From: a virus
Lineage: Duplodnaviria > Heunggongvirae > Uroviricota > Caudoviricetes
Length of the DNA stretch: 64,000 bases
Direction: 5' to 3' (one strand)
IMG/VR virus record: IMGVR_UViG_3300022468_000772
Coordinates: 86,224 to 150,223 of that record
Part shown: positions 2,686 to 63,926 of the stretch, one piece after another
How positions within the stretch are numbered: the first letter of the stretch is position 1
How the letters are laid out: every line of letters starts with the position of its first letter
The notes under the pieces: generated by a model
Database searches by the model: none
Told to the model about the DNA's origin: nothing
Seen by the model: only the letters and a program-made list of their open reading frames with translations
Position numbers and translations under genes: made by a program

Positions 2686-2701
2686 CATAAGAAAGAATTA
2701 C

Positions 2702-4487: not shown

Positions 4488-4499
4488 TAGCATAAATAT

Positions 4500-4526
4500 G
4501 TTCATGTTAAACTCTATATCATGAAC
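4500..4526 (+). promoter_or_regulatory. hairpin in the regA 5' leader (possible translational operator)
   Basis: GTTCATG ... CATGAAC, 7-bp stem with AU-rich loop, 4 nt before the regA ATG. Confidence 0.25.
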
Positions 4527-4530
4527 TATT

Positions 4531-4926: not shown

Positions 4927-4941
4927 GGTGAAACAAATATT

Positions 4942-5391: not shown

Positions 5392-5615
5392 TCGATGACG
5401 GAAAAGGCCCCATTAACCAGATGTTAGATTCTGCACCACCAAGAGTATTCGGTGGTCGGTTTTTAGTCAAAGGCTCGACCTTCGATAATGGTGTTGACAA
5501 ACCATCTATCATGATTATAGTTACTGATCTGATTGACAAAAACTTTAAGATCAAATTCTTTAAGGATGCTGAATCTGCTGCCAGCTACCTTAAACTTCTC
5601 GACGCAGCAAAATAA
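5388..5615 (+). CDS. hypothetical protein
   Basis: 75-aa ORF; ATGA overlap with the previous ORF. Confidence 0.35.
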   Translation: MIDDGKGPINQMLDSAPPRVFGGRFLVKGSTFDNGVDKPSIMIIVTDLIDKNFKIKFFKDAESAASYLKLLDAAK

Positions 5616-5629
5616 AAGGAAATATCATT

Positions 5630-5914
5630 ATGAGTATCGTGCAAACATCCCAAATCAACTTCCCTAACGATCCCGCAACCCTGAAGACCATTAAGGATGC
5701 ATTGTTTGAAATCAGCGCATCCATGACACGTGTAGAGGGTGAAAAAGATTTCCAGAAAGAAGCACTGAGTGATCTGGCTGAGAAAACCGAAGTGCCGGTC
5801 AAGTTTTTAAAGACATGTGCCTCCATTTACCATCGCCAGAATAAAGACCAAGTAGAAGGTGATAAAGAGGCAGTTTTTGAGCTTTATGACGCTATTTTTG
5901 GAGAGGCTTCTTAA
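5630..5914 (+). CDS. hypothetical protein
   Basis: 94-aa acidic ORF with RBS AAAGGAAAT. Confidence 0.4.
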   Translation: MSIVQTSQINFPNDPATLKTIKDALFEISASMTRVEGEKDFQKEALSDLAEKTEVPVKFLKTCASIYHRQNKDQVEGDKEAVFELYDAIFGEAS

Positions 5915-28118: not shown

Positions 28119-30146
28119 TTAGACTTCCTTGTCAACCAATTCAGCAGTGGCCTTGATTTTCTTGGACAGACCGAAGTTCATTTCCAGAGTTGTATTTTCA
28201 TACGAACCCAAATCAGTGAACCACTTGCGACCCAAAATTACACCAAACTTGGCCTTGATGATCTTGTCACGCAGTGTAGCGATGTTACCCTTCAGGAGCT
28301 TTAGAGCAGTTTCGTTATCGGTCACAGGTGCCAAATCCTTCAGTACATTAGCAACCACTTCCTTAGAAGGGGTCAGGCTCTTGCCAGCAGCGATATCGGC
28401 TTCCACATCGGAGATTTTGGGGATGCTGTTCAGACCAGACAAACCAATCTCCAGTGCCTTAGCAACGTATGCATCGACACTTTCGCCTTTGACAGACTTG
28501 GGGGAAAACCCGCTTGGCGTCACACCATACTGTTTCAGGAACAAAGCACCTTCTGCACCGTACTTCTTAGCGAAGTCTTCGGAGAATTCAGGTTTCTCAA
28601 TTCGCGAATTCAGAATCTTCTGTGCAACACGCAATTTGTACAGGTCAAACTGCCATGTAAACATGTCTTTAGCGGTCACAGGAGCCGCCATGGAGCGATT
28701 GATGACAGGCATGTTGGATACATCGATCACATACGTTGCATTGATCTTGAAAGGCTCCAGAGGAATGCCATTTTGAACCAACAGATCGTATGTTGCTTTG
28801 GTCAACACCACAGGCAACTTCTTCACATTCACAATACCATCACGAATGATAGCATAGTTGCGCCAGATGAAACTTTCCACAGAGTTACCAAAGCCCAATT
28901 CATTGTCAGGCAGAGAAACAGTACCATCACGGCGAGTCAGGATCGACACGTTAGGCCGGTCTTCATCAAATTTCAATGTGCTGATAGCAGCCTTCACTTC
29001 ACCTTCTTTGGAAGAGAATTCTGGCTTGAAACCGCCTTCATCAGCCACCACTTCACGCTTGCCACCGATAGCATTGTAGCTGAATTCGGGGTGAGAAATG
29101 TGCAACAGGTTACCTTCGGTGTCTGCCAAATCCATCAACAAAGTCAGCACGTTGTATGCATTGGGGTCTTGCTTCAGCTTCAGATTGCGTGGCTTATCCT
29201 TGAACGGTTCGTAGTCACCAACAAAGGATACCACACGGTTGAAGTCTTGCTTTGAGAATGCATTCTGTACAACATTGAACAGAGATTCATCACCGATCAG
29301 ACCAGACAGTTCCAAAGCCTTGTCAGATTCACCACGTTGGATCAATGCACCCACCACTTGAACAGCAGCGAATTCATCTTCAACGGTTTCAATATCACCG
29401 GAACCTTGGAAGAAAGAGTAAGCAATGCAATTCGAGGGGAATGCTGCTTTACCGGATGCGTCAGGCTTGACAGTCACATAGCTTTGATCCATATGACCCA
29501 CAATCAGGGTGTCCAGAGGCAAACCTTCAACCACTTTGCGCTTACCAGAAGAACGAGTAGTCAAAGAACGTGTCAGAACGTCAGTATAGGATTGGAAGTC
29601 ACCAGCACCGATCATTTCACCACCCATTTCTTCAGCCATTTGGGTCAGGAAAGCATCATCGGCATAGTAGCCATAGGAAACCACCACAGAGCTTGCAACA
29701 TGGTCAGCGACCTTGGTACACACCTTGATGATTTCGGAGCGTGAGGATTGGTTTTCGCCACCGTCAGACATGAATGTCATGGATACTGGTCGGTCAGTGC
29801 TATCGATAGCCAACTGTACCACCTTTTCCAGAGGGTCTTTGAAACCGGTCAGGCCACGTGCAACCAAGAAACGGTCAATAGCGGTATTGACGCTTTGCAG
29901 GTCTTTGGCAGTCGAGATTTGCAGGTTTTCGAAGATGGTGCCGCAATCGCCACGTGAAGAGAACCAAATCAGTGTCAGCGTGTCTTCTGGTTCGACCAAT
30001 GTAGGCAGCTTGTTTTTCAGGTGATTGCGCAGCTTAGGTAGTTCGCCATACATGCTTCCAGAGCAGTCAACCACCACAATACGATGCATAGGAATGACAA
30101 CTGCTACTTCAGCCTTGTCTTCGAAATGTTTTGTCACAAGTTTCAT
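28119..30146 (-). CDS. large von Willebrand factor A (vWA) domain protein with long C-terminal extension
   Basis: VVVVDCSGSM (MIDAS DxSxS) at the N-terminus, then TLIWFSS...G and MSDGGEN; 675 aa from the M of MKLVTKH (RBS AAGGAAA). Confidence 0.6.
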   Translation of the reverse strand: MKLVTKHFEDKAEVAVVIPMHRIVVVDCSGSMYGELPKLRNHLKNKLPTLVEPEDTLTLIWFSSRGDCGTIFENLQISTAKDLQSVNTAIDRFLVARGLTGFKDPLEKVVQLAIDSTDRPVSMTFMSDGGENQSSRSEIIKVCTKVADHVASSVVVSYGYYADDAFLTQMAEEMGGEMIGAGDFQSYTDVLTRSLTTRSSGKRKVVEGLPLDTLIVGHMDQSYVTVKPDASGKAAFPSNCIAYSFFQGSGDIETVEDEFAAVQVVGALIQRGESDKALELSGLIGDESLFNVVQNAFSKQDFNRVVSFVGDYEPFKDKPRNLKLKQDPNAYNVLTLLMDLADTEGNLLHISHPEFSYNAIGGKREVVADEGGFKPEFSSKEGEVKAAISTLKFDEDRPNVSILTRRDGTVSLPDNELGFGNSVESFIWRNYAIIRDGIVNVKKLPVVLTKATYDLLVQNGIPLEPFKINATYVIDVSNMPVINRSMAAPVTAKDMFTWQFDLYKLRVAQKILNSRIEKPEFSEDFAKKYGAEGALFLKQYGVTPSGFSPKSVKGESVDAYVAKALEIGLSGLNSIPKISDVEADIAAGKSLTPSKEVVANVLKDLAPVTDNETALKLLKGNIATLRDKIIKAKFGVILGRKWFTDLGSYENTTLEMNFGLSKKIKATAELVDKEV

Positions 30147-30377
30147 AATTAAAGTTTCCTTTGTTGTTGAGTTTAATATTCTACCACGGTTTTTTGGTTT
30201 GTACAGTGCGTTCGTCAAACAGTTTTTAGGTCTATACCAAAATGCTTTTCTAGATCATTACTGATGATGTCAACTCCGTAATTATCAGCATGTACAAAAA
30301 CACATTCCTGAATAAGTAGTTTTGCAAACTCATTTTGTTCAGGTGTAAATTCGATATTCGCAATTAGAGCAATCTTC

Positions 30378-31594: not shown

Positions 31595-32392
31595 TTATTT
31601 GCCAATATTCATTACTGACATACCATGTGGAATCAGAATTGTCTGAACTTTTCCGTTTGAAACTGCTTCCGCTACCTTCAAATTGGCTTGAGCATTCATG
31701 TAAGCAATGCTTTGTCCAGAGTTCGATGCCAGTGCAGCCATACGCTCAGATTCCAGCTTTGCCAACTTGACTTCGTTTTCCTTGATCTTCAATTCGTTTT
31801 GGCTACGCACAAATTCAGTAGCAGAGGCCAAGATTTGATCATTAGGGACAACACTTCGAACTTGAACCACGGTCAGTGTCAATGACGAGTTCAATTTCTC
31901 ACGACTCAATTGATCATTAACTTCTGCCAAGATTTCTGCTTCCATCTTTTGGCGATTGTCTGCGACTTCAAGTGACTTGTAGTTACGAACCACTTTGTAT
32001 GCGGCATTTGTTACCAACACATTCATGTAGTCATACATCAGCAAGGTGTCACCATCATCACGTGCGTGGAACGACTTGCTCTTGGTCGAATACAACTCAG
32101 CAACAGAACTTGGATTGATACTGTAAACAACAGTCATGTCGAAGTCTTTCAGTGGAGAGTTATCCGCTGTCATGGGAGTTTTGTCATTGATCTTGATGGT
32201 CAAGTCTTTGACAGGGAAAGTCAAAACATGTCCAACCAAAGTTTGATTCCAAGAACCGGGAGGTAGTTCAGCACCTTGAATCTGTTTGGATGCATCTACC
32301 CGAACGCCAACCTCGCCTGTTTCGATACGGGTACAACCAGTCATCAAGACAGAAGCTGCCATCACCAAACCAATCAAAATTTTCTTCATCAT
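31595..32392 (-). CDS. SPFH (band-7 / HflK/C / prohibitin-like) domain lipoprotein
   Basis: Signal peptide plus lipobox LMTGC; SPFH core TADNSPLKDFDMTVVYSI ... LTLTVVQVRSVVP... then a coiled-coil tail. Confidence 0.65.
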   Translation of the reverse strand: MMKKILIGLVMAASVLMTGCTRIETGEVGVRVDASKQIQGAELPPGSWNQTLVGHVLTFPVKDLTIKINDKTPMTADNSPLKDFDMTVVYSINPSSVAELYSTKSKSFHARDDGDTLLMYDYMNVLVTNAAYKVVRNYKSLEVADNRQKMEAEILAEVNDQLSREKLNSSLTLTVVQVRSVVPNDQILASATEFVRSQNELKIKENEVKLAKLESERMAALASNSGQSIAYMNAQANLKVAEAVSNGKVQTILIPHGMSVMNIGK

Positions 32393-32783: not shown

Positions 32784-33045
32784 ATTCTGATTTCCAATAC
32801 TCTTCGGGCAGAGGGAATTCCCAGAACCCATACTCGCTCACTTTACCATACCCACATGTTGTATTACCTTCGATATCGGAGCTATAACTTGGGTTGTGTC
32901 CACGCTTATAAAGAGAGATAGCAACATTCTTGGCTGTGTCAGAAACAATACGCCGACCAATCGAGATTTCTTGGCGTAACTCTTTTTCATACAGTTGCCG
33001 CGCACGTTCACAAATCAAAGCAACCAACTGTTCTTCTGTCATCAT
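32773..33045 (-). CDS. hypothetical protein
   Basis: 90-aa ORF; ATGA overlap with the cd gene. Confidence 0.4.
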   Translation of the reverse strand: MMTEEQLVALICERARQLYEKELRQEISIGRRIVSDTAKNVAISLYKRGHNPSYSSDIEGNTTCGYGKVSEYGFWEFPLPEEYWKSEYEN

Positions 33046-33488
33046 ACACTTGTTTCCTTGTAATGTTGAAAATAGATAAATTTACCCATCTTGTCTAATA
33101 CTTCATTATGCAGTCGATATTCTTCTTTGAAGATAGCCTGACGGATACCAGCCTGAATCATACGAGAGCAGCATTTAATACATGGTGACAAGGTAGTAAT
33201 CATTATAGCATGCTCTAGAGGAAGGCCACGCTTCGCAGCATGTAACATAGCATTTTCTTCTGCATGGATAACAGTGTCCAGAGTTTTAAGTTCTGTCTTA
33301 TCAGCAGACAGTACAACAACCTCTTCGCAGCAGTTGTCAGCACCATTATGCGTACCGTTATATCCTGTAGAGATTATCCGACCAAAGCTGTCAACAATTA
33401 CTGCACCCACCTTACTTCGAACCGCATGGGATCGTTCGGCGGATGCAGATGCTACTTTGAAAAGAAATGGTAGCTCTTTTTCAAGCAT
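33042..33488 (-). CDS. cd: dCMP deaminase
   Basis: HAEENAM (HxE zinc motif) and SPCIKCC (PCxxC) of the cytidine/dCMP deaminase fold. Confidence 0.8.
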   Translation of the reverse strand: MLEKELPFLFKVASASAERSHAVRSKVGAVIVDSFGRIISTGYNGTHNGADNCCEEVVVLSADKTELKTLDTVIHAEENAMLHAAKRGLPLEHAIMITTLSPCIKCCSRMIQAGIRQAIFKEEYRLHNEVLDKMGKFIYFQHYKETSV

Positions 33489-39060: not shown

Positions 39061-39306
39061 TTAACCGCTCTTTAAAAGTTGTTCATGATAGGCTTCGCGC
39101 AAAAGTTTTTGACCCTTCTTAGTCACTCTCCATGTCTTTTCGCCAATTAGCCCCAATTGTACCATAATCATTGTGATAGTGTGACCACAATGATATCCGA
39201 CAGCACGTTTAAACACTGAAGCATTCAAAAGTTCGCGTTTATCAGCACCACCAAAGTTTGTGTTGCGGAAAGCTAATTCCAATTCTTCGTCAGAGACTAT
39301 AGACAT
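39061..39306 (-). CDS. hypothetical protein
   Basis: 81-aa ORF. Confidence 0.4.
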   Translation of the reverse strand: MSIVSDEELELAFRNTNFGGADKRELLNASVFKRAVGYHCGHTITMIMVQLGLIGEKTWRVTKKGQKLLREAYHEQLLKSG

Positions 39307-39742
39307 AAATTTTTAAATCCTGTTTTTGCCACTTATCAAACATTGGTTCGATCTTACTCCAATCACACCCACCAAGACCGCACCCGATTTTAGGAATGAC
39401 AATTGTATTGAACATCTTCATGACGAATGCGAGATTACTTTCAATAGCTTCATAAGAAGCATACTGCTTTCCATCTTTTCCGTAGAATTCCTGAGTGATT
39501 GCAGACGCGAGATAGATGTCTGTTTTATAGTCTTTTGATAAAGAGCAGTCTCCGAGTCCAAGACCTGAAGCAAGATCGTCCACGTAATGTTTGAATGCTT
39601 TTGGATATCTTTCTTTAAACTCTTTAGCAACACCGCTACCCATGACACCTTGTTTGTTGCAACCATGCATGAATACTTTTCTTCCGTGGTCTTTGGAAAA
39701 ATCATGATCAAACATGTTACCTTTACGATATTCAATCTGCAT
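39290..39742 (-). CDS. macro-domain (ADP-ribose binding/processing) protein
   Basis: VFMHGCNKQGVMGSGVAKEFKERYP (compare VNAAN...GGGVAGAI) and IPKIGCGLGGCDW (compare IPxIGTGIxG); 150 aa. Confidence 0.6.
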   Translation of the reverse strand: MQIEYRKGNMFDHDFSKDHGRKVFMHGCNKQGVMGSGVAKEFKERYPKAFKHYVDDLASGLGLGDCSLSKDYKTDIYLASAITQEFYGKDGKQYASYEAIESNLAFVMKMFNTIVIPKIGCGLGGCDWSKIEPMFDKWQKQDLKIYVYSL

Positions 39743-42225: not shown

Positions 42226-43275
42226 TTAGTACCCCCGCTTTAGCAAATAACTGTTGGAAACTGACTTAAAGGTAAAGCGATCACCCTTGTTTGACTTAAA
42301 TACAACACCTTCGCGCATCAGATTCTTCAGATCACCGATTCGGCTAGGCTCAGAAGCTGCATAGTTCAGGAAATCATCAGAAGTCATTCCACGGATATCA
42401 AAATCCGTTTCCAATACTGGCACGGTCTTGATTTGCAAAAAGTCAGCCAATGCCTGCATTTCTTTTGGTGTGTAGTATTTCTGTGCATCAATGTCATAAA
42501 CATCGAACAGACGGTATTCCCACGCACCTAGATTGTAGTAGTTGCCCTGGACAGCAGGCCCGATTGTTTCGAACTGCAGTGCAATATTAGGACAGAAACT
42601 AGCCAGCTTCTCTTTTAGATTATTAGCGAAAGCAGGCTGCGTGAAAGGTGAATTCATGATCACATCTTGATCTTCCAGCTTCAGGCGCAGGTTGCGAGAG
42701 CAGATACCAAAATCACCGTCACGTTGGAAAACAGTCACAGAGGAACCTTCAGCCTTTTCTTCGATAGTGAAAGTGGCATCGGGGTTCTTTTCCAGATAGT
42801 TTTCCACGGAACGCATGAAGTTCTGAATACGTTCTTGGTCGGTCTTTGGAATGAAGCTAGGGAATGAACCCATGGCATTCACAGGTACACGCTCTGGCTC
42901 TGGTTCCCACTTGATGATACCAAGCAGTTCCGTAACATCTAGACCTTCAACGAATTGTGTTGGATCATTGAATTCTGCAGGAATAGGTAGCAGCAAACCT
43001 TGACTCAGTGCGCCTTTCAGCTTGATGGTCTTCAGACGCTCACCGTCGATACCCTTGTAGTTCTTGGGGTATTTGTCGGCTTTGGTCAAGAATGGTGCAA
43101 TAGTGTTTGGCATCCATGAGTCACACTCACAGTAGACAACCAAGTCACCAACAGCGTACTTGTCCTTCTGGTCAATCACGCGCCACCCACCGATCCGATA
43201 CTGCACAATGCGGTCAGCACCTTCGATGGCAATTACTTCTTCAATTCGTGCAATATATGCAAGTTTACGTGTCAT
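42226..43275 (-). CDS. ATP-dependent RNA ligase, Rnl5-like (N-terminal OB-like domain plus adenylyltransferase)
   Basis: N-terminus MTRKLAYIARIEEVIAIEGADRIVQYRIGGWRVIDQKDKYAVGDLVVY parallels NgrRnl MGVRKLATIR...PIAGAEAIECCHVDGWTCVIKKGEFKQGD; motif I EEKAEGSS (KxxG). Confidence 0.5.
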   Translation of the reverse strand: MTRKLAYIARIEEVIAIEGADRIVQYRIGGWRVIDQKDKYAVGDLVVYCECDSWMPNTIAPFLTKADKYPKNYKGIDGERLKTIKLKGALSQGLLLPIPAEFNDPTQFVEGLDVTELLGIIKWEPEPERVPVNAMGSFPSFIPKTDQERIQNFMRSVENYLEKNPDATFTIEEKAEGSSVTVFQRDGDFGICSRNLRLKLEDQDVIMNSPFTQPAFANNLKEKLASFCPNIALQFETIGPAVQGNYYNLGAWEYRLFDVYDIDAQKYYTPKEMQALADFLQIKTVPVLETDFDIRGMTSDDFLNYAASEPSRIGDLKNLMREGVVFKSNKGDRFTFKSVSNSYLLKRGY

Positions 43276-45584: not shown

Positions 45585-46382
45585 TTAAACTTCTACAACT
45601 TCAATCGAGAAATATTTTGGTAGTGTCTCATAAATCACATATCCACGTGGGTTGCTAAGAATCCGAGTACCGTGAATGAAGTAATCAACCGGAAAGTGTG
45701 TATGACCATGAATCCAAACACTAGGCCATCCAGCACTGATTACATCTTCCATATCGGTACAGCAATAGAATGGTGTCAAACGTGTAATATTTGACTCCGA
45801 GCGATAATGTGGTGCATGATGTGTAAAAACAACACGATTCTTCATGCCAGTATTGTGATCAGTCAAACGCTCATATAAAAAGTTTTTATGCTCGTAATGC
45901 TTTTCAATACCTTTTACTGGTGTAAATGTACTTTCATCAATTTCCCTGTAATCATTCATTGCATTACCAGAGATAATAGCCATTGGATCAGATTTGTTCA
46001 AATCTGTCCAGAGAGTGGCACCAATTAGATGACAGTCACCTTCCATATGCTCAAGCATTTCTCCAAAGTCGATATTTGTAATACCAGCCTCTCGGAAATA
46101 ATCGTAAACAATATTTTTTGCTTCGAAGAATGAGGAACCGTAATACTCGTGATTCCCAGAAATCCAAAGGACACGTTTGTATTTGGTTGAAACACGATCT
46201 AAGAAATCTCGAATGCTGTGACTCATATATGTGTCGTACATACCGGGTCGAAGAAAACGTATTTCGCCCACATCACCAGCCAGAATCAAAACATCCGCCT
46301 CTGGAAATTCAAAGTCGGTTGGTATGCCTGCAGTTTTATCAATGTCCAAATGCAGGTCTGAACAATAAGCAATTTTAATCAT
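45585..46382 (-). CDS. calcineurin-like metallophosphoesterase (second copy)
   Basis: YCSDLHLD (DxH), LAGDVGE (GDxxE), ISGNHEYY (GNHE), GHTH. Confidence 0.6.
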   Translation of the reverse strand: MIKIAYCSDLHLDIDKTAGIPTDFEFPEADVLILAGDVGEIRFLRPGMYDTYMSHSIRDFLDRVSTKYKRVLWISGNHEYYGSSFFEAKNIVYDYFREAGITNIDFGEMLEHMEGDCHLIGATLWTDLNKSDPMAIISGNAMNDYREIDESTFTPVKGIEKHYEHKNFLYERLTDHNTGMKNRVVFTHHAPHYRSESNITRLTPFYCCTDMEDVISAGWPSVWIHGHTHFPVDYFIHGTRILSNPRGYVIYETLPKYFSIEVVEV

Positions 46383-49202: not shown

Positions 49203-49543
49203 AGGTATGGCGCGTTTGGATCATCCCAACGCCTGATAGGATGGTCAAATGGTCTATATGGCAGAGGATCAACAGGCACTTTCTTTTTTGGAGGGAATAA
49301 CTTATTGATATCATCAAGAGTCAAACCCTGTTGTTTAGGCGCGGGAGTTTTCGGATCATCCTTTTTGACAGGGTTCAGGATATTCCCGAGAGAAATCCAA
49401 AGATCACGTGCGTCATCCATGGACAGGTTGTGTACAACACCATCCAACTCAATTGTTACTGTAGCTTTTACCGACATATAAGTTCCCCTGTAATATCTTC
49501 TAATATAACTTCGATTGTTTCCATCATTACTTGATTTCATCAA
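49196..49543 (-). CDS. hypothetical protein
   Basis: 115-aa ORF. Confidence 0.4.
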   Translation of the reverse strand: MMKSSNDGNNRSYIRRYYRGTYMSVKATVTIELDGVVHNLSMDDARDLWISLGNILNPVKKDDPKTPAPKQQGLTLDDINKLFPPKKKVPVDPLPYRPFDHPIRRWDDPNAPYLC

Positions 49544-50939
49544 ATGAATTTGCTTCCAGCTTGTCGTGGCGCACCTTCTCGAAACGTGGCAAGAAAAGAG
49601 AGTAAACGGTAGAGTCGCGTTTGAGAATCTTTTCGTTGTAGGTCAATTCCACGATGGAGCCAAGATTGATTTCAGTATCACCTGGATATGCCTCATACGT
49701 CATCCACAAAGACTCACCACTTGGGCTTGTACCTGCAGCAAGACTATATTCAACACACTTATTGAAGATATTGGCAGTGATTTCAGCACGTAGCTTCAGT
49801 GTGAAACCAGACATATTCACGACTACTTTATCATCGCGGGATGTCATTGTCAAAGAGCCAACATAACCTTCAAACTCACCTTGACCATCAATGTATCCAG
49901 TGACTTTCAATTCGCAGGTTTCTTCAGCCTTCATCTTCAAGATTTTCTTGGAACGACGGTCTTCCCACAATACGGAAGAGTCTTTCAGCATTGCACCTTC
50001 CTCACCAGCATCACGGTACTTTTGGTAGATTGCCTGTGCTTCTTCCAGACTGTAAACAACATCATGTTCAATTGGTCGGATCAAAGGTTTGACATTTTCG
50101 TCAGAAACAAAACGTAATAGTTGACTAAAACGTTCTGCCGCATCCAGCATACATTTTTCGCCACCAAAGAAAACTTCTTCATGAATGACATCCCATGACA
50201 CGGCAACCATGCGCAGAGATTCTTCTTTCGACAGCGTACCTTTGATAGCCTTCGAGCAAATGCCGTTACCGGTCTTACGATCTTCAAATTTACCATTAGG
50301 CTTCAGTACCATCAACTCAGCATCAAAAACGCGCCCAACGCATTCTGGTGCGTTTAGGAGTGCATCGAAGCGACCATGCAGATCAAGAATGTTTCCAGCA
50401 CGAGAATAAATCGTAACAGAATCTTCCTGCACGTGGATAGAGATACGCAGACCATCAGACTTGCGTTCAACGATAACACCACGTTTCCAATCTAGCGCAT
50501 CAGCCAGCTTTTGGCTATATGGGGAAGCCAGCAGGTTTGGATGTTCAGGAATCAGTTTGGGCCAAACATCGTTAGCAGAAGAATCAACACCACAACCGGT
50601 TTTCTTCTTCAGAATTCGCTGGAGAACTTCTGCATCATCTGGATGAACAATACTAAGTGTATTAGCGATTACATCACGAGCAGCATGACCAGTGATCTTT
50701 CTGGTAGCAATCAGTTCATCTAATTCTTTCATTGCCAGAAATAAGGGGTACCATTGACCTGTTGTTGCTGTAGATTCAAATACAATCTCTTTCTTTTGGA
50801 AGAAATTGATGCGCGGATGCAAACACAGACGGAAAAAGTCTTTCAGATCAACATTGTCTTTATGCTGAGTCATGATAGCAACCTTTTCCTTCTTAGAACG
50901 TGTTGCATCGATTTGATTTAGGATTTCGAGGATTGTCAT
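49527..50939 (-). CDS. 30: ATP-dependent DNA ligase
   Basis: N-terminus MTILEILNQIDATRSKKEK aligns with T4 gp30 MILKILNEIASIGSTKQKQ; motif I ERKSDGLR (KxDG); 470 aa. Confidence 0.85.
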   Translation of the reverse strand: MTILEILNQIDATRSKKEKVAIMTQHKDNVDLKDFFRLCLHPRINFFQKKEIVFESTATTGQWYPLFLAMKELDELIATRKITGHAARDVIANTLSIVHPDDAEVLQRILKKKTGCGVDSSANDVWPKLIPEHPNLLASPYSQKLADALDWKRGVIVERKSDGLRISIHVQEDSVTIYSRAGNILDLHGRFDALLNAPECVGRVFDAELMVLKPNGKFEDRKTGNGICSKAIKGTLSKEESLRMVAVSWDVIHEEVFFGGEKCMLDAAERFSQLLRFVSDENVKPLIRPIEHDVVYSLEEAQAIYQKYRDAGEEGAMLKDSSVLWEDRRSKKILKMKAEETCELKVTGYIDGQGEFEGYVGSLTMTSRDDKVVVNMSGFTLKLRAEITANIFNKCVEYSLAAGTSPSGESLWMTYEAYPGDTEINLGSIVELTYNEKILKRDSTVYSLFLPRFEKVRHDKLEANSFDEIK

Positions 50940-50952
50940 TGTTTGTTCTTTC

Positions 50953-51336
50953 TCAATATGAAACTTCACCGGCTCGATCAAAGTATTTCTTGCCAGTTTT
51001 CTTTGCATCGATAGTATACACGATTTTCCTGCGCCAGTCGCCTGATTTGATATCTTTTTCAGTCACAAACTGATTCGGTTCCCAATGATGATACTTTTTA
51101 TAGCAACGCTCAATATCAACCATGTCTTCATCGGTCAGTTGCGCGTCTTTGTTGTTTGTGTCTATGCGCTTTTCATAGAGGCATCCCTTTTTCATACCCT
51201 CAAAAGAGTATTTGTAAAGAGGCATAGCAGTAACACCATCAACAGGCATCACATCACCAACAATCCCATTCCAGATAGTGATTTCTGGATTACCTTTGAT
51301 CTTGGAAAGAATCTCGATTAGTTTATTCTTTCTCAT
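50953..51336 (-). CDS. hypothetical protein
   Basis: 127-aa ORF. Confidence 0.4.
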   Translation of the reverse strand: MRKNKLIEILSKIKGNPEITIWNGIVGDVMPVDGVTAMPLYKYSFEGMKKGCLYEKRIDTNNKDAQLTDEDMVDIERCYKKYHHWEPNQFVTEKDIKSGDWRRKIVYTIDAKKTGKKYFDRAGEVSY

Positions 51337-51730: not shown

Positions 51731-52384
51731 TTATTGTGTTGCTTGCCAGCGACGGAAGTTTTCTTCGGCCTTCTTATTGTACTCGACAAAAGCGCCAGTG
51801 TATAGATTTTCCCATGTTTGGAAACTAACTTTGATACCCTCTTCTACACTCCAGATGTCGGCAAACATTGTTTCATCGACAGCAGGTGTGTACACAAATG
51901 TGGTGCAATAAAAATCTCGTCCATCACCACCAACCACAATCTCGCTGAAGATGGGTACGAACAATTCAGAACGCAGGTTCAGACCAGTTTCTTCAGCAGT
52001 CTCACGCACGATGGCTTGATGGATAGTCTCACCAGCGTCTTGTTTACCGCCCGGCAGCGCAAGAATATCCGTGTTTCGGCGTGTTGTTGTCAACACCTTA
52101 CCGGATGTGCTATGAATGATCACGGCTGCAGAGTTAGCGAGTGTACGCTTACTTGTATCTACATAAGTTTGTTGAGGGATAGCCGGTGTCTCAGATTTAG
52201 CCAAGACAAAGTAGACTTCAATATTGTCTTCGCGCTGAAAATCTGCGCATGCGATACCTTCACAAAAGTTTTTTCTTTCACCAGTAGTATCAAAATGACA
52301 GATACTACATGGATTTGGTGTGCTTCCAACGACAATTGGGATTACTTTAACTCCACCCCAAGTTTCAACAGCTAAATTTTTCAT
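51731..52384 (-). CDS. Nudix hydrolase with N-terminal Cys cluster
   Basis: Nudix box GGKQDAGETIHQAIVRETAEETGL (Gx5Ex7REUxEExGU); N-terminal CSICH...CEGIAC. Confidence 0.75.
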   Translation of the reverse strand: MKNLAVETWGGVKVIPIVVGSTPNPCSICHFDTTGERKNFCEGIACADFQREDNIEVYFVLAKSETPAIPQQTYVDTSKRTLANSAAVIIHSTSGKVLTTTRRNTDILALPGGKQDAGETIHQAIVRETAEETGLNLRSELFVPIFSEIVVGGDGRDFYCTTFVYTPAVDETMFADIWSVEEGIKVSFQTWENLYTGAFVEYNKKAEENFRRWQATQ

Positions 52385-52398
52385 ATTTCTCTCCAAAA

Positions 52399-52424
52399 GA
52401 AAAGGCACCGGTTAGGATGCCTTT
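52399..52424 (-). promoter_or_regulatory. hairpin plus U-tract in the Nudix 5' leader, after the TAXI gene stop
   Basis: Minus strand: -10-like TGTGATATAAT, then AAAGGCATCCTAACCGGTGCCTTT + TCTTTT, then RBS GGAGAG and the ATG. Confidence 0.3.
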
Positions 52425-52442
52425 ATTATATCACAATTTTGA

Positions 52443-53357
52443 TTACTTCTTAGCTGCTACTGTAGGCAACTGGTACATGGGCCACTTGGCTTCTGCACCC
52501 ACAACCACTTTTGTCCATGCAGCATGAGTACCAGTGGTTTCTGCCAATTCAGGAGCCTTCGCATTGAAACATGCACGGAACTTGGACAGAGCTTCAACCA
52601 TCTTGGGTGTCTTGTACTCTCGTACCACCAGAATGGCATCTGTAGACACAGTGGTGATGCCGGTAGAACCCATGTTGGTGTAGTTCAGAGTCGAAGGCTT
52701 GTATACATTCTTCAACTTAGCAATCATTGGTTCAGGAATACTCAACAGCTTATGTGCCTTGTTCAGGGTCTTCAAGTTATCCATGGGTTGACCACCAACA
52801 AACAAGGCAGCGGCAGCAGTTCCAGCATTCACAGCTTCAATTGCAGCTTTGGCATCAGCAACTTCCACCACGTTGAAATTGATTTCTGTCTGAAGACGAA
52901 TTACTTGGGCAGTGATATAAGAACCACCAGACGCCACGACAGTTCGCCCTGCAAGGTCATTGATGGTATTAAAGACCACTTGTTTACCGCCAAACCCCAT
53001 AACACCGCCTTCTTTTCCTGCACCTGCTGCAAGTGCAACTAGATGCACCTGTTCAGGATGCAGGGTCACCAAGGTCTTGATGTTGCTCAAGTCTTCAGTG
53101 TTTCCACGGAACTTGATCACATCGGTTTGCACGAATGCGCCTTGAACTTCATTTCCAGTCAGACGATCCATATTCTGCATAGAACCGGAAGAGTTCAATT
53201 CCTGCAGTTGAATGTCGTTGGCACATACATTGCCGATTTCCTTAGCCATGCGGGAGTATGTCGCACCGGCACCACCAGTGGATACCTTGAAGGTATTTTG
53301 AGCCAGCACCGAGAATGCAGCAGCACCGAGAATGATAGCGAGAATGAATTTTTTCAT
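52443..53357 (-). CDS. secreted periplasmic solute-binding protein, TAXI (TRAP-associated) family-like
   Basis: Signal peptide MKKFILAIILGAAAFSVLAQ; FKVSTGGAGATYSRMAKEIGNV resembles the TAXI N-terminal TGGTGGxYY motif; 304 aa, typical SBP size. Confidence 0.45.
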   Translation of the reverse strand: MKKFILAIILGAAAFSVLAQNTFKVSTGGAGATYSRMAKEIGNVCANDIQLQELNSSGSMQNMDRLTGNEVQGAFVQTDVIKFRGNTEDLSNIKTLVTLHPEQVHLVALAAGAGKEGGVMGFGGKQVVFNTINDLAGRTVVASGGSYITAQVIRLQTEINFNVVEVADAKAAIEAVNAGTAAAALFVGGQPMDNLKTLNKAHKLLSIPEPMIAKLKNVYKPSTLNYTNMGSTGITTVSTDAILVVREYKTPKMVEALSKFRACFNAKAPELAETTGTHAAWTKVVVGAEAKWPMYQLPTVAAKK

Positions 53358-58738: not shown

Positions 58739-59260
58739 TCAAACCTCGATTTTCGATTGATTAACTTGACGCGCAGACATGCGGTATTTGGCACCGGTAT
58801 CAACATCAGTGACATACCAGCCACGACGACCAACATTTTCATCAAGTTTGTACTTGGAATTGTTGTAGGAAATAACTGTACCAACATTCATTTTCACTTT
58901 GGCTTTCTTGTCTGCGTGATATTCACGAACCTTTTCACGCCACTTCAAAGCATATCCACCCTCACCTTCGAGTTCGCTTGCTTGGCTCAGAAGACTCAGA
59001 GGACAGTCGTAGTGGTATGGGCCAGAAAATTCATCCATAGACTTGTAGCCCCAACCCATGTTGCGACCACCACCCATCATCAGACCCAACCAGATGTATT
59101 TCTTGCCGGTAGCAATGGTTTCCACCAAGCCCCAGAAGTGATTACCCACGACACGACTGTCAACCAGACGATACCCCTCAGAGAAAAACTTATCGCTGCG
59201 GAAACGTGCCACTTGATCAGCACGTTTGAAACCTGTAGACATCGCGAAAGAGTAACCCAT
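58739..59260 (-). CDS. hypothetical protein
   Basis: 173-aa ORF downstream of a promoter copy. Confidence 0.45.
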   Translation of the reverse strand: MGYSFAMSTGFKRADQVARFRSDKFFSEGYRLVDSRVVGNHFWGLVETIATGKKYIWLGLMMGGGRNMGWGYKSMDEFSGPYHYDCPLSLLSQASELEGEGGYALKWREKVREYHADKKAKVKMNVGTVISYNNSKYKLDENVGRRGWYVTDVDTGAKYRMSARQVNQSKIEV

Positions 59261-59268
59261 GTTTATTT

Positions 59269-59302
59269 CCTTTTGAATTTCGATGAATGAATTATAGCAT
59301 AG
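59269..59302 (-). promoter_or_regulatory. early promoter plus leader motif (copy)
   Basis: rc: CTATGCTATAATTCATTCATCGAAATTCAAAAGG. Confidence 0.5.
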
Positions 59303-59642
59303 ATTTTTCTTGATTTATCTTATCTGAGATAAATTTTAAAAAATCGTTGTCATTCAGTTTGTCATTTTTCCTTTGAATTTCGTACAACTCAGTGCCTGTA
59401 AAACCATATTTTATCAATTTCATAAGGATACGCTGGATCGTGCCATTTGAAGATTGAATGTTTAACGTCATGCTTCCAGTGCGATCTAGATAATCCAATT
59501 CATTTTCATCCAACAAGCAACCTAGTGCGCAGTAGCATAATTGATCTTTTTCATAGTTGAACCGGCGATAAAAATATGATACTCTGTTCCCACTCAGGGT
59601 AAGTTCCAAAATTTTCTTGAGTGCTTCGATTTTAGTTGACAT
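59292..59642 (-). CDS. hypothetical protein
   Basis: 116-aa ORF. Confidence 0.4.
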   Translation of the reverse strand: MSTKIEALKKILELTLSGNRVSYFYRRFNYEKDQLCYCALGCLLDENELDYLDRTGSMTLNIQSSNGTIQRILMKLIKYGFTGTELYEIQRKNDKLNDNDFLKFISDKINQEKSML

Positions 59643-60684
59643 TGTTAATTACCTCTTTCATTTGCTTCAAACGTTCTTCGATGGTTCCGGTAAGAATTGT
59701 GTATTCTAACCCAAAATCCTGCAAAACATCACAGTAATAATTATGAACACTCTGACGGAAGTTTTCATCACGGCGTGTTCCATCCTGATCAAATGGGATA
59801 TCTGGAACACAGATAAAGATATGCGCGTAACGATGCATGTCTTGAAAGTTGTATGACCTTAGAAAACGGTCTACACGACCAAATATAACCTCAGAATAAA
59901 CGGAAGTAGTAACCGAACATGTGTCACAGATCACAAAGTCTTTACTCGTGTCATAGGCTCGTTGAGCAGCAATGTATTCCTGTTGGCGTTGAACCTCTGC
60001 AATTTGGCGCATATTTTTGAACACGAGTTTACCATCGGTTTGTTCCCACAATTCGCGACCATATTCAAAGACAGGCACAATATCAAATTTCTTAGAAGCA
60101 CGTTGCACGATGGTTGTCTTTCCAGAAGATTCGCCACCGAGGATCAGAATGCGCGGAATAAAGGTAGCAAACACTTCTGGATGCACCCAATCTTCGATAT
60201 CACGGTAGTTCTTTTCAATCATTTCACGCAGCATTGTACCGGATACTTTGTTCACTTCGCGGTCTTCATCAACCATAGAGAACTGGCATTCTGGAGAAAT
60301 TGTTCCAGCCAACATATAACCATATGACTCAGAAGCAAAAACAACATCAACACCATCACCATCAGGGAAATATTCTCTGATCTTGTCACGGCAGAATTCA
60401 CGATGGATGAATGCCGGTTCGTCATCAAGTGGAATTGAATCAATTTCTGGATTCAATACAACTGCTTCCAGACGCCCAGAATCAATTTCATTCTTGTAAA
60501 TTGTGTCGAGCCAGTATTGGCGTGTCGTGCTGTCACAGCCGAAGAATTCTTCAGATGTGTAGCTCAAAACAAACACTTGTTCGCAGCGTTCCAGTGCAGT
60601 TTCGATCACATATTGATGCCCTTTGTGCAGTGGTGCAAATTTACCAACCACAAAGCCACGTTTGAATTCTTTATTTGTTGTCAT
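59632..60684 (-). CDS. nadR: NadR-like bifunctional NMN adenylyltransferase / ribosylnicotinamide kinase
   Basis: N-terminal (H/T)xGH nucleotidyltransferase motif VGKFAPLHKGHQ; C-terminal Walker A GGESSGKTT as in NadR RNK domains; 350 aa, no HTH. Confidence 0.65.
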   Translation of the reverse strand: MTTNKEFKRGFVVGKFAPLHKGHQYVIETALERCEQVFVLSYTSEEFFGCDSTTRQYWLDTIYKNEIDSGRLEAVVLNPEIDSIPLDDEPAFIHREFCRDKIREYFPDGDGVDVVFASESYGYMLAGTISPECQFSMVDEDREVNKVSGTMLREMIEKNYRDIEDWVHPEVFATFIPRILILGGESSGKTTIVQRASKKFDIVPVFEYGRELWEQTDGKLVFKNMRQIAEVQRQQEYIAAQRAYDTSKDFVICDTCSVTTSVYSEVIFGRVDRFLRSYNFQDMHRYAHIFICVPDIPFDQDGTRRDENFRQSVHNYYCDVLQDFGLEYTILTGTIEERLKQMKEVINNVN

Positions 60685-60687
60685 ATT

Positions 60688-60870
60688 TTAATCACCACGT
60701 TTTAACAGGTTTCGAATCTCATAGATGCGTTGCTCTATTCCTCTGCGAACCATATCAGCTTCAGCACTTCCACCGATAGCATCATTCTGGCGTTCTAGGA
60801 ATTTCAGAGCGCGTTGCATGGCTACTACATGTGTTTTGGTTATTCCGAGTTTCGGTTCAGCAGAGTTCAT
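60688..60870 (-). CDS. hypothetical protein
   Basis: 60-aa ORF downstream of a promoter copy. Confidence 0.3.
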   Translation of the reverse strand: MNSAEPKLGITKTHVVAMQRALKFLERQNDAIGGSAEADMVRRGIEQRIYEIRNLLKRGD

Positions 60871-60876
60871 CTGGTA

Positions 60877-60904
60877 CCTTTACTTCAACTAGATTATACC
60901 ACAG
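60877..60904 (-). promoter_or_regulatory. early promoter -10 (copy)
   Basis: rc: CTGTGGTATAATCTAGTTGAAGTAAAGG. Confidence 0.4.
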
Positions 60905-61475
60905 ATTCCAGTCGTTGAATCTTCCGCCACTGGAAATAAGAGACAATTGCGTTGATCCAGAAGAAACCATACAGGATCGAAGTCAGATACAACTCACGTG
61001 ACCAGAACAAAGGTACGCTGATAGTGTTCACAATCAACCAAATACCCCAAGATTCAATACGCTTGCGCATCAGCATAAATTGACCAACAACACTCATTGT
61101 CAGTACAACAGAGTCTACAAAGGGTGCATAGGCGTCTGTAAACTTGTGCAGGAGCATTCCATAAGCGACAGCAACCAAAATTGCCGATACCAGATACGTC
61201 ACAAGTTGGTCAGATGGTGTATTGGTGATCTTGAGTACACCATTGTCGTTCTTTGCATTCCAGCCGATCCAGCCAATCACGCCTGTGATCAGGAAGAATA
61301 CCTGCAGAGTCGCATCCGCATATAGCTGGTTGTTGAAAAACAACACACCGAACAAAGCAGACGAAACAATACCTGTCCACCAAGTGTGGATGTTATTGCG
61401 ACCAGCCAAAAAGATACACAATGCAGTCATGATGTTGGCTGCAAGTTCGAGGGGTGTCCAAGTAAAAATGTTCAT
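60894..61475 (-). CDS. pnuC: PnuC-like nicotinamide riboside transporter
   Basis: Polytopic membrane protein; LYADATLQVFFLITGVIGWIGW matches the PnuC signature LYA...LQ.FF...YGWY.W; adjacent to nadR as in bacteria. Confidence 0.6.
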   Translation of the reverse strand: MNIFTWTPLELAANIMTALCIFLAGRNNIHTWWTGIVSSALFGVLFFNNQLYADATLQVFFLITGVIGWIGWNAKNDNGVLKITNTPSDQLVTYLVSAILVAVAYGMLLHKFTDAYAPFVDSVVLTMSVVGQFMLMRKRIESWGIWLIVNTISVPLFWSRELYLTSILYGFFWINAIVSYFQWRKIQRLESVV

Positions 61476-61494
61476 GATAAATTTCCTTTTGATT

Positions 61495-61872
61495 TCAGTT
61501 AGTTTCAAATTTAGATTTCAATCGCAGGTATTCTGCATACTCAGGGTCATTATCTCGCTTGATAGTTGCAATAGTTTTTTCAACAACACTATCGGTGATA
61601 AAAGAACTATTATAGCTCATGACAGTGGTAACAAACGCTTTGAGAATCACTTCAACAATTTCTTTGGTGATTTCTGGCTTTACAGCGTGTTCCAGAATAG
61701 ATGCGGATTCATCATCCACTTCAAACCATGTCTCTTCGCCATAATTTATACTTGTCTTTGTATCCCATAACGCCCAAATTTTATGCCTATCGATACGAGT
61801 GACTGTACCTGTATCTATATTGGTAGGCATCTTGTAAGCTACTTTGTCACCTACACTATATTCTGTTGTCAT
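61495..61872 (-). CDS. hypothetical protein (paralogue of 58316..58702)
   Basis: See paralogue entry at 58316..58702. Confidence 0.45.
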   Translation of the reverse strand: MTTEYSVGDKVAYKMPTNIDTGTVTRIDRHKIWALWDTKTSINYGEETWFEVDDESASILEHAVKPEITKEIVEVILKAFVTTVMSYNSSFITDSVVEKTIATIKRDNDPEYAEYLRLKSKFETN

Positions 61873-61873
61873 A

Positions 61874-62092
61874 TCAATCTTTCAAGTTAAATGGAGTTTG
61901 ATCAATAGAAGAAATTGTTTCGTTCACGAATTCCACAGCGATTTCCATGGATTCTGCATCATCTTCGAGTTTATTCACATAAAGACCGGATAAGGTGCTT
62001 TCTGGAATGTAGTAGTAGCCACGACCACGAACCAGACGTTCGGTGCGACCAGACTTCTTCAGGAGTTTGTTAATAGTGGCAAGTGTTCCCAT
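61874..62092 (-). CDS. hypothetical protein
   Basis: Start at the M of MGTLATINK, immediately after a promoter copy at 62093-62110. Confidence 0.35.
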   Translation of the reverse strand: MGTLATINKLLKKSGRTERLVRGRGYYYIPESTLSGLYVNKLEDDAESMEIAVEFVNETISSIDQTPFNLKD

Positions 62093-62110
62093 GATTGAAT
62101 TATACCACAG
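62093..62110 (-). promoter_or_regulatory. early promoter -10 (copy)
   Basis: rc: CTGTGGTATAATTCAATC then ATG. Confidence 0.4.
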
Positions 62111-62351
62111 TTTCGACTTTTTCATAGAATTCAATACCGCGCCAGCCGCCACCAACAAGGGCCATGTCACCATCAATCTTTTTTACGATACCTGTCCAGA
62201 TACCACCATGACCAGTGTGCATGAGATACTTACCATCAACCAATTGTTCAGGTAAGTAACGGCAGACGACTTTTCCGTAAGTTGGGTTATATCCAACCAT
62301 CTTGTCACCACGGATTGCAACGGTATCACCAACTTGGATTTGAGCCATCAT
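62100..62351 (-). CDS. hypothetical protein
   Basis: 83-aa ORF downstream of a promoter copy. Confidence 0.4.
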   Translation of the reverse strand: MMAQIQVGDTVAIRGDKMVGYNPTYGKVVCRYLPEQLVDGKYLMHTGHGGIWTGIVKKIDGDMALVGGGWRGIEFYEKVETVV

Positions 62352-62355: not shown

Positions 62356-62389
62356 CCTTTTGAATTTCGATAATTGAATTATACCACGG
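62356..62389 (-). promoter_or_regulatory. early promoter plus leader motif (copy)
   Basis: rc: CCGTGGTATAATTCAATTATCGAAATTCAAAAGG. Confidence 0.5.
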
Positions 62390-62390
62390 T

Positions 62391-62903
62391 TTATTCGTCG
62401 CGGTTAATAATTTCAAACATTTTCCAAAACAAAGGAAAATCAGAAGCACGTTTCAATGTTGGCATCATCAGACGCTTCTCTGGAAAGTACGTGCCATAGG
62501 CAAACTTCGGATCGTAGCGTTCAATCGACTTGGTGTTGTCGAAAATATCGCAAATACGAATCTCTAGAACATCGCGAAATTGATCAGAAAGCCACTGTCG
62601 GTCAATAGCTTGACGAGTAGCGCGATTGCCATCTTCTGGCTTTGATGGATTTGTCATGCCTTTGACCATGCGCAACACATCATTACCAAAGGCAGCAATA
62701 TCTTTTTCTGGGCAATTAGTATCTTCCAATACGTCATGCATCCATGCTGCGCAGATTTGATCTTCGGTGCCGCCATTGTCTCGAATCAGTTTTGCAACTG
62801 CAGCGGGATGAACGATGTAAGGTTCACCTGTGTACTTACGTACTTGATGTTGGTGCCAAAATGTGGCGAGTTCACGTGCCCGTTTTATTTTTAGAGTTTT
62901 CAT
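62391..62903 (-). CDS. small alarmone hydrolase (SpoT/Mesh1-like HD-domain (p)ppGpp hydrolase)
   Basis: YIVHPAAVAKLI ... ICAAWMHDVLEDT matches the RelA/SpoT HD motif Y..HP..VA..L...AALLHDVVEDT; 170 aa. Confidence 0.6.
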   Translation of the reverse strand: MKTLKIKRARELATFWHQHQVRKYTGEPYIVHPAAVAKLIRDNGGTEDQICAAWMHDVLEDTNCPEKDIAAFGNDVLRMVKGMTNPSKPEDGNRATRQAIDRQWLSDQFRDVLEIRICDIFDNTKSIERYDPKFAYGTYFPEKRLMMPTLKRASDFPLFWKMFEIINRDE

Positions 62904-63194: not shown

Positions 63195-63926
63195 TTACAA
63201 ATCTTCTTCATGAACGTTTGTCGGATAGTGACCAGTAATATGAGCGTCCCATACGTTGATCATATCACCATTATGATCTTGATATCGCTGCGGTTTGTGA
63301 TGAATTCGCAACTCATGACCACGGTGAAGAAGAATTTCTTTTTCACCTGGATTGAAACTGTGTTTCATCATAGAAATCGCATGTGTCCCCTTTGGTACAT
63401 GAATGCGTAACATATGTCTAGCAGTGTCTTCATCACCAATCTTTATAGCTCCATGTTTTTCATCATCTGGATGTGGATACTGTAAAGACGCAAATCCTGC
63501 AGCCTGCTTAATACTCGTTGATGTGGATGTGTATGCTGGCATATGAACATCCACATGTGATTCACCTTCAGCCTTGTTTTTCATGTGCTGACTAGGCGAC
63601 CAGTTAATACCCGAGTACACATGAAAATCTTTTTTGGTCTTATGTTTTTCCAAAACTTTATCCAAATGCTCTACACTCTTGGAAGCAGATTCTTTCCAAG
63701 AGTGTCCATTGTGGTAATTAATAAGTGGTAAATTTGTTGGCTTACTATCATCAGCATAATCACTCAAAACTACCTTTTCTGGTTCGGAAATTTTTTTCTG
63801 ATCTACTTTATTTTCTGAATGAATTTCAGTGTGTTCAGCTTGACTACGCTCAACATCATCCGCCATACGACCTTCTGACAAAGACTTTTTCTTGTCGTCT
63901 TTTAACTTAGAAGCCTTCTCAGTCAT
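63195..63926 (-). CDS. putative ADP-ribosyltransferase-like protein (Alt/Mod-like); frame stays open to the window end, so the gene may start beyond 64000
   Basis: K/E/D-rich N-terminus; FHVYSG ... AYTSTSTS ... PGEKEILLHRG resembles the (R/H)-STS-ExE order of R-S-E class ARTs. Confidence 0.3.
   Translation of the reverse strand: MTEKASKLKDDKKKSLSEGRMADDVERSQAEHTEIHSENKVDQKKISEPEKVVLSDYADDSKPTNLPLINYHNGHSWKESASKSVEHLDKVLEKHKTKKDFHVYSGINWSPSQHMKNKAEGESHVDVHMPAYTSTSTSIKQAAGFASLQYPHPDDEKHGAIKIGDEDTARHMLRIHVPKGTHAISMMKHSFNPGEKEILLHRGHELRIHHKPQRYQDHNGDMINVWDAHITGHYPTNVHEEDL

Follow-up and report, generated by a model that had tools for sequence, protein, structure and literature searches.

The minus strand of a 64,000-nucleotide stretch of Caudoviricetes phage DNA (positions 86,224 to 150,223 of IMG/VR record IMGVR_UViG_3300022468_000772, hereafter the window) carries a PnuC-like transporter gene, a 60-amino-acid (aa) open reading frame (ORF) and a NadR-like gene, in that order. 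We read pnuC-orf60-nadR as a phage-borne salvage module for nicotinamide riboside (NR) of the NARP3 type, and place the probability of this reading at roughly 0.7. NARP3 comprises the NadR-like Bas30_86 and the PnuC-like Bas30_87 of the T5-like Escherichia phage TrudiRoth/Bas30 (Yan et al., Sci Adv 2026, PMC13464706; PDB 9X6F/9X6H). A PnuC importer paired with a bifunctional NadR had been proposed for this locus in a first-pass annotation of the window, and family models, catalytic motifs, predicted fold and gene linkage support that proposal at the level of predicted activities. The same annotation called the two genes adjacent: both ORFs are present on the minus strand (60894..61475 and 59632..60684), but the 60-aa ORF lies between them and they are not strictly neighbors. 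Window features below are on the minus strand unless a plus strand is given.

The nadR-like gene (59632..60684) encodes 350 aa, with a predicted nicotinamide mononucleotide (NMN) adenylyltransferase (NMNAT) domain at aa ~7-170 and a predicted ribosylnicotinamide kinase (RNK) domain at aa ~175-350; its N-terminus reads MTTNKEFKRGFVVGKFAPLHKGHQ. The whole protein is covered by its match to phrog_3462, “nicotinamide-nucleotide adenylyltransferase” (2e-41); NCBIfam TIGR01526 nadR_NMN_Atrans covers aa 9-334 (1.8e-33) and Pfam AAA_28 covers aa 178-338 (1.6e-27). By sequence the protein also matches PDB 9x6f (Bas30_86) at 8.5e-15 together with 8x7f and 1lw7. The two motifs named in the first-pass annotation are both in place, with catalytic residues that are invariant in an alignment of 70 homologues. 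The nucleotidyltransferase motif of the NMNAT domain, GKFAPLHKGHQ of the HxGH type (aa 14-24; 60613..60645), has invariant G14, K15, F16, P18, H20, G22 and H23, and of these K15 and F16 align with K10 and F11 of Bas30_86, both of which are needed for the activity of that enzyme. A second NMNAT motif, VSGTMLR (aa 147-153; ISSTxxR type), has an invariant R153, while S148, G149 and T150 are kept in at least 90% of the homologues. The Walker A P-loop of the RNK domain, GGESSGKTT (aa 183-191; 60112..60138), is invariant at G183, E185, S186, G188 and K189, and the other invariant positions of the kinase are found in EYGR (E207, G209 and R210), the Walker B residue D254 and the lid DGTR (aa 301-304). 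The same NMNAT and RNK motifs have been described for the NadR proteins of H. influenzae and L. lactis (PMC7221760).

An AlphaFold2 model built on the 70-homologue alignment has a mean pLDDT of 94.3 and a pTM of 0.89. Searched against the PDB with Foldseek, this model has only full-length NadR among its top eight matches (8x7f, 1lw7, 6gzo, 6gyf and 6gye), with E-values of 5e-19 to 2e-11 over ~360 columns and TM-scores of 0.49-0.63; the PDB set searched by Foldseek excludes 9X6F/9X6H, and Bas30_86 was compared by sequence alone. The window protein has no N-terminal helix-turn-helix (HTH) domain, as only 13 residues precede the GKF motif and PRK08099 is aligned only from model position 192. A reading of this NadR as a repressor was rejected on the absence of that domain, and the protein is therefore taken to be an enzyme only, like Bas30_86 and the NadR of L. 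lactis. It represents a divergent subfamily of the NadR family.

The pnuC gene (60894..61475) encodes a 193-aa Pnu-family transporter that consists of the seven-transmembrane (TM) core only and is a predicted NR facilitator by Pfam, NCBIfam and PHROG models. It matches Pfam PF04973 NMN_transporter at 1.2e-49 and phrog_1880 at 4e-31, clears the NCBIfam PnuC equivalog TIGR01528 with 93.9 bits against a cutoff of 42.45, and aligns over aa 11-188 with the PnuC of N. mucosa (4QTN; 7.8e-10). The ATG at 61475, preceded by an AAGGA ribosome-binding site 7 nt upstream, is preferred over an alternative upstream TTG at 61508 because of this site and because the same start is shared with a 69%-identical homologue in the closest relative. 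Six hydrophobic segments are above threshold and a seventh (aa ~140-158), which holds the WxxW motif, falls just under it; this pattern agrees with the seven-TM Pnu core (PMC5749112). The ligand-binding motif WxxW(x)3N is present as WGIWLIVN (aa 143-150; 61026..61049), with W143, W146 and N150 invariant in the PnuC alignment. In the Pnu family, the TM6 motif WxxW(x)3D/N ends in Asn in PnuC and in Asp in the thiamine transporter PnuT (PMC5749112), and N150 of the window protein aligns with N180 of Bas30_87, which is essential for NR binding in that transporter. Some members of the family, the N. mucosa PnuC among them, have an extra N-terminal TM helix, thought to be needed for trimerization, which the window PnuC lacks.

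The two genes belong to a tightly packed block of small minus-strand genes that occupies the window from 58.7 to 64 kb. They are 209 bp apart on the same strand, and the gap is filled by the 60-aa ORF (60688..60870), which has an AAGG sequence 8 nt upstream of its ATG, is separated from its neighbors by spacers of 23 nt and 3 nt, and stops 3 nt ahead of the nadR ATG. This ORF is possibly a real small gene. It belongs to no Pfam or PHROG family, has no tblastn match in three related loci (L002, L005 and L006), and has no similarity to the 73-aa ORF that sits in the same slot of L005. The content of this slot varies among relatives: four unrelated genes are found in L002 (7287..8829), three tiny ORFs in a Lysinibacillus phage (L008 2575..3004) and several small genes in KVP40-like phages, and none of the slot ORFs are homologous where comparison is possible. 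Upstream of the gene block 62351..58739, a sigma-70-like promoter match (TTAACC-18-TATAAT with a TG extension; 62378..62407) fits the consensus at 10/12 positions; since promoter-like sites are fewer in this region than in shuffled controls, the match is weak evidence. A terminator scan found no convincing terminator between this site and nadR, and an Rfam scan showed neither an NAD+ (nicotinamide adenine dinucleotide) riboswitch nor a pnuC motif ahead of pnuC. The only Rfam match was elsewhere in the window, to a single tRNA-Met (CAT) at the window start (225..300, plus strand).

To place the pair among its relatives, we examined genomic contexts of NadR homologues and searched phage records by tblastn with the two proteins fused in window order, counting a record if at least 80% of the fusion is matched at a single place. 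The search for the same pair in relatives, suggested in the first-pass annotation, was productive. A pnuC gene lies upstream of the NadR homologue in seven of eight contexts (it is absent at locus L011), and at least 121 phage records carry pnuC then nadR in the same order and orientation; together these numbers argue that the pairing is not due to chance. The records include KVP40 and its relatives, ICP1, phages of Bacillus, Caulobacter, Rhizobium and Lysinibacillus, and metagenomic phages of 630-735 kb, and the pair is thus far more widespread among phage records than in Enterobacteriaceae phages alone. The closest relative, represented by 183-kb JGI contigs (L002-L004), has a NadR of 78% and a PnuC of 69% identity and the same gene order as the window: ADP-ribosyltransferase, HD hydrolase, three small genes, pnuC, nadR, DUF932, TAXI-like binding protein, Nudix and ATP-dependent ligase. 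In L002 the genes inserted between pnuC and nadR are NinX-like, DUF5406 and two hypotheticals, and the pair is 1.6 kb apart. A phage-like metagenomic contig (L005) encodes a 47%-identical NadR in the arrangement pnuC-orf73-nadR, directly preceded by NMNAT/Nudix and NAMPT genes, so that a NARP2-like and a NARP3-like set form one cluster (2257..6784); this arrangement fits a theme of NAD+ reconstitution. At the bacterial loci L006, L009, L010 and P0054 (NadR identity 37-42%), pnuC directly precedes nadR and often overlaps it by 4 nt. Measured against the closest relative, the ratio of nonsynonymous to synonymous substitution rates (dN/dS) is 0.19 for pnuC and 0.12 for nadR (the latter against the 78%-identical P0002), with proteins 22-31% diverged; with dS at ~1.0-1.2 these ratios are approximate. 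They indicate that both genes are under purifying selection.

The window is phage DNA, with genes for a T4-type DNA polymerase gp43, UvsX, a gp41-like helicase, gp32, TerL, RegA and gp44/62 clamp-loader subunits. Megablast of the locus and of window positions 1-25000 against 50,697 phage records returned no match, and the carrier phage is therefore novel at the DNA level among deposited phages. The best isolate match for the window DNA polymerase is that of a Synechococcus myovirus, at 41% identity. JGI metagenome contigs, the longest of 198 kb, encode a protein identical to the window NadR, and a pattern scan of IMG/VR with NadR found no relatives. The carrier is an uncultivated, distant T4-like phage of ~200 kb (roughly 198 kb), without a close isolate.

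The first-pass annotation had presented a PnuC plus NadR route as a transporter-based variant of the phage pathways that restore NAD+, but such a variant is not new. Osterman et al. had put forward PnuC-NadR as a way for phages to reconstitute NAD+ in 2024 (bioRxiv 10.1101/2024.02.11.579819, Discussion and Fig. S3), the route was demonstrated in 2026 with Bas30_86 and Bas30_87, and the pair is annotated in KVP40 and many deposited phages. In the demonstrated system, NR is bound, imported and converted to NAD+, and NAD+/NADH pools depleted by Sir2-HerA and DSR1 are restored (PMC13464706). Bas30_86/87 rescue T7 and lambda from both defenses by 10^3- to 10^4-fold in an NR-dependent manner, with a half-maximal effective concentration (EC50) of ~4-6 uM, and both genes are required (PMC13464706). 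The pair was also found in other T5-like Epseptimavirus phages and was described as largely confined to phages of Enterobacteriaceae (PMC13464706). With the gene pair, its biochemistry and its anti-defense role already in the literature, the window pair is a new, distant member of the NARP3-type systems.

The likeness to Bas30 is that of a two-gene phage module combining a Pnu-family NR transporter with an HTH-less bifunctional RNK/NMNAT NadR. For comparison we used a Bas30_86-identical gene and its neighboring pnuC from Salmonella phage bastian. Common to both pairs are the GKF...xGH and SGT/SAT..R motifs, the Walker A GxESSGKTT, EYGR, the Walker B Asp, the DGxR lid and the TM6 WxxWxxxN. The differences concern gene order (pnuC then nadR in the window, nadR then pnuC in Bas30), the intercalated 60-aa ORF of the window, the nucleotidyltransferase motif (canonical HxGH in the window NadR, TxGH in Bas30_86) and the phage type (T4-like versus T5-like). 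Bas30_87 has 225 aa, is described as a trimer with nine helices and carries an N-terminal extension of ~30 residues that is missing from the window PnuC. Of 14 residues that Yan et al. highlight in Bas30_86, seven are identical in the window protein (K10, F11, S37, P84, F110, S112 and E230), and K168 is replaced conservatively by R.

KVP40 (AY283928, in which nadR and pnuC are annotated) and schizo-T4-like relatives share with the window a T4-like backbone and a pnuC that precedes nadR on the same strand; in these phages, as in L002, the pair is interrupted by several small, unrelated genes, and identity of the KVP40 pair to the window is ~27% over the fused query. KVP40 also carries a NadV/NatV (NARP2) route, with which PMC11662467 is in agreement. 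The scanned ORFs of the window include neither a NAMPT nor an NMNAT-Nudix gene. The closest cellular relatives of the window pair are bacterial pnuC-nadR operons with an HTH-less NadR (L. lactis NadR, PDB 6GYE, and the metagenomic, Betaproteobacteria-like loci L006, L009 and L010), which have the same domains and motifs, a pnuC located upstream and the same logic of facilitated diffusion and metabolic trapping (PMC7221760, PMC5749112). In contrast to these operons, the window genes are part of a lytic-type phage genome, do not overlap, have a small ORF between them and are not preceded by an NAD+ riboswitch or pnuC motif. The window pair is 37-47% identical to the bacterial operons (NadR 37-42%, PnuC 47%) versus 24% to Bas30, and this closer relationship suggests that it may have been captured independently of the T5-like NARP3. 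The NARP1 (Adps and Namat) and NARP2 (Nampt and NMNAT/Nudix) pathways have the same predicted outcome, in that NAD+ is restored after immune depletion (Osterman et al. 2024). NARP1 uses ADP-ribose and nicotinamide and NARP2 uses nicotinamide and phosphoribosyl pyrophosphate, and both reuse NADase products within the cell, whereas the PnuC-NadR route requires NR from outside.

Pnu transporters and NadR work by facilitated diffusion followed by metabolic trapping, as NMN is unable to leave the cell (PMC5749112, PMC7221760). In the proposed mechanism, the window PnuC would insert in the inner membrane of the host and external NR would diffuse in. The C-terminal kinase domain of NadR would then convert NR and ATP to NMN, trapping NR in the cell, and the N-terminal adenylyltransferase domain would convert NMN and ATP to NAD+. 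Acting as an enzyme without an HTH domain, NadR would place the pathway outside host regulation. The NAD+ pool may thereby be raised or restored during infection, allowing replication despite NAD+ destruction by SIR2, TIR or SEFIR-type effectors, provided that external NR is present. For the window genes we infer transport specificity, both enzyme activities, the timing of expression and the benefit against host defense.

A role in overcoming NAD+-depleting immunity, as suggested in the first-pass annotation, is plausible and matches the validated NARP3 (PMC13464706); for the window phage this role is proposed by analogy. Several observations weigh against it or against the NARP3 assignment as a whole. 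Each window protein is only 24% identical to its Bas30 counterpart, and only about half of the residues mutated in the Bas30 work are kept. Six of the 14 highlighted Bas30_86 residues differ (E80, G89, D115, K163, R167 and D275) and only one of three NR-binding residues of Bas30_87 is kept (N180, with N45 replaced by T and Q94 by G), although several of the non-conserved positions were identified by docking to AlphaFold models instead of in the crystal structure, and for this reason the differences are not read as a negative result. NadR scores 116.2 bits on TIGR01526, far under the equivalog cutoff of 341, and 77.8 bits on PRK08099, for which the cutoff is 201. The four unrelated genes that separate the pair in the closest relative imply that tight operon coupling is not maintained. 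The pathway depends on an external supply of NR, the NARP3 evidence was itself obtained outside its native phage (PMC13464706, Discussion), and an NAD+-consuming ADP-ribosyltransferase encoded 1.7 kb away offers another reason to boost NAD+.

This last point leads to a competing explanation that we take seriously while holding it to be unlikely: that the genes form a general auxiliary metabolic module with the same biochemistry as above, differing only in the selective benefit. NAD+ would feed the NAD+ consumers of the phage, above all the nearby ADP-ribosyltransferase, or sustain host metabolism during infection by a large-genome phage, regardless of NADase immunity in the host. The ADP-ribosyltransferase gene (63195..63926) shares the gene block of pnuC and lies 1.7 kb upstream of it, the closest relative adds an ADP-ribosylglycohydrolase next to its ADP-ribosyltransferase gene, and the window has Macro (39290..39742) and NADAR (3631..4083) genes as well. 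ADP-ribosyltransferases, however, need NAD+ only in catalytic amounts when set against the cellular pool, which counts against them as a reason for added synthesis. The NAD+ synthesis genes of KVP40 and many jumbo phages have been read as metabolic support (PMC11662467), but the sole experimental data on a phage PnuC-NadR pair show an anti-defense phenotype (PMC13464706). The metabolic and anti-defense roles are also mutually compatible.

Two further explanations bear on the substrate and on the value of the genes to the phage. The transporter and kinase might act on another compound, such as thiamine, an NR analogue or another vitamin or nucleoside, with NAD+ not the product. Other vitamins, thiamine among them (PnuT), are indeed carried by Pnu-family members (PMC5749112), the alpha5 Gln (Q94 in Bas30_87, with an equivalent in N. 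mucosa) is Gly65 in the window PnuC, and NadR falls under its equivalog cutoff and has bacterial relatives that NCBI names only “AAA family ATPase”. Against this, the TM6 motif WxxWxxxN ends in Asn as in PnuC and not in Asp as in PnuT, the TIGR01528 NR-transporter equivalog is passed, the top structural matches are all NadR, and the kinase forms a single protein with a complete NMNAT domain that has HxGH and SGTxxR motifs, a fusion that is sensible only if the phosphorylated product is NMN; we consider a different substrate improbable. Least credible, and very improbable in our estimate, is that both genes are recently acquired passengers (morons) from which the phage gains nothing. The intervening slot behaves as an insertion hot spot, and the closest cellular homologues are only ~40% identical, which is taken as showing horizontal origin. 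Both genes are nonetheless intact and syntenic in a relative at 69-78% protein identity with dN/dS of 0.12-0.19, and many phage lineages that are not related to one another have the pair.

The first-pass annotation linked to the module a Nudix hydrolase that might process ADP-ribose, the product of NADase defenses. A real Nudix gene is present at 51731..52408 if read from a GTG (or to 52384 from an ATG), with a PF00293 match at 1.7e-11 and, at aa 121-143, the canonical Nudix box GKQDAGETIHQAIVRETAEETGL. No evidence connects it with ADP-ribose. The gene lies 7 kb from nadR with ~15 genes between them, and the best matches of the protein among family models and the PDB are generic MutT-like Nudix proteins, all far under cutoffs. 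The signature of ADP-ribose pyrophosphatases reportedly described by Dunn et al. in 1999 is a Nudix box with a proline ~16 residues downstream. Downstream of the box in the window protein, the sole Pro is at +9, no Tyr is found at +16-18 and no SQPWPFPxS motif is present. An assignment as ADP-ribose pyrophosphatase was rejected on the absence of both the Pro+16 signature and a specific family match, and a connection of the Nudix gene to the PnuC-NadR module is unsupported. The homologue in L002 is 57% identical and has a loop inside the Nudix box that is two residues longer. An N-terminal extension (aa 1-90, listed for the region 51731..52000) is Cys-rich, with a CxxCH...C...C pattern shared by the L002 homologue, and resembles a zinc ribbon. 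The Nudix gene adjoins a gene for a secreted solute-binding protein (52443..53357) with a signal-like N-terminus, MKKFILAIILGAAAFSVLAQ, and matches to the TAXI/NMT1_3 family (TIGR02122, 3e-17) and phrog_6856 (2e-46); it is 76% conserved in the relative, and no partner membrane components were seen.

The 64-kb window as a whole has an unusually dense set of NAD+- and ADP-ribose-related genes (ADP-ribosyltransferase, NADAR, Macro, Nudix, PnuC and NadR). The ADP-ribosyltransferase is of the exoenzyme/toxin type (PF03496, 2.9e-16), with STS at aa 134-136 and EKE, an ExE motif, at aa 195-197. In L002 (3235..4940) the ADP-ribosylglycohydrolase gene (PF03747) directly adjoins the ADP-ribosyltransferase gene, and the equivalent position is past the end of the window. 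The NADAR-domain gene (plus strand; PF08719, 4e-19) separates the gp44-like clamp-loader gene from the gp62-like one. Proteins with this domain are enzymes that process ADP-ribose, some of which reverse the ADP-ribosylation of guanine in DNA, and this gene may be another counter-defense gene. The Macro-domain protein matches PF01661 at 6.6e-11. Between the ADP-ribosyltransferase and pnuC, a stand-alone SpoT/RelA-type HD hydrolase domain (62391..62903; PF13328, 1e-13; TIGR00691, 4e-22; 77% in the relative) may be a phage small alarmone hydrolase. We offer tentatively, as a speculative extension, that an independently captured PnuC-NadR could be the supply arm of a phage NAD+/ADP-ribose toolkit comprising the ADP-ribosyltransferase, the ADP-ribosylglycohydrolase of relatives, Macro, NADAR and Nudix. 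Imported NR would then both fuel the ADP-ribosylation of host targets and buffer NADase immunity, and the variable slot ORFs could be lineage-specific modulators of the pathway.

Other genes of the window have various predicted functions. An RNA ligase (42226..43275; PF09414 and a PHA02142 OB domain) and a calcineurin-like phosphoesterase (45585..46382) may constitute a T4-like RNA repair set. The DNA ligase (49527..51008) is ATP-dependent and not NAD-dependent, and hence places no demand on NAD+. A 699-aa VWA-domain protein is encoded at 28119..30218, a dCMP deaminase at 33042..33488 and an SPFH/Band-7 protein at 31595..32392; the NARP3 pair of Salmonella phage bastian, too, has SPFH genes on its flanks (L001 1292..2235). 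A NUMOD3-containing, homing-endonuclease-like gene (5892..6836) lies just upstream of the DNA polymerase gene, on the opposite strand.

The finding changes no concept. It extends NARP3-type modules beyond the T5-like phages of Enterobacteriaceae to an uncultivated T4-like lineage of ~198 kb. The minimal seven-TM PnuC and the HTH-less, HxGH-type NadR of this lineage would be useful comparators for establishing which NARP3 residues matter. As the window pair is nearer to bacterial operons than to the validated pair, its relationships suggest that phages may have recruited NR salvage repeatedly and independently.

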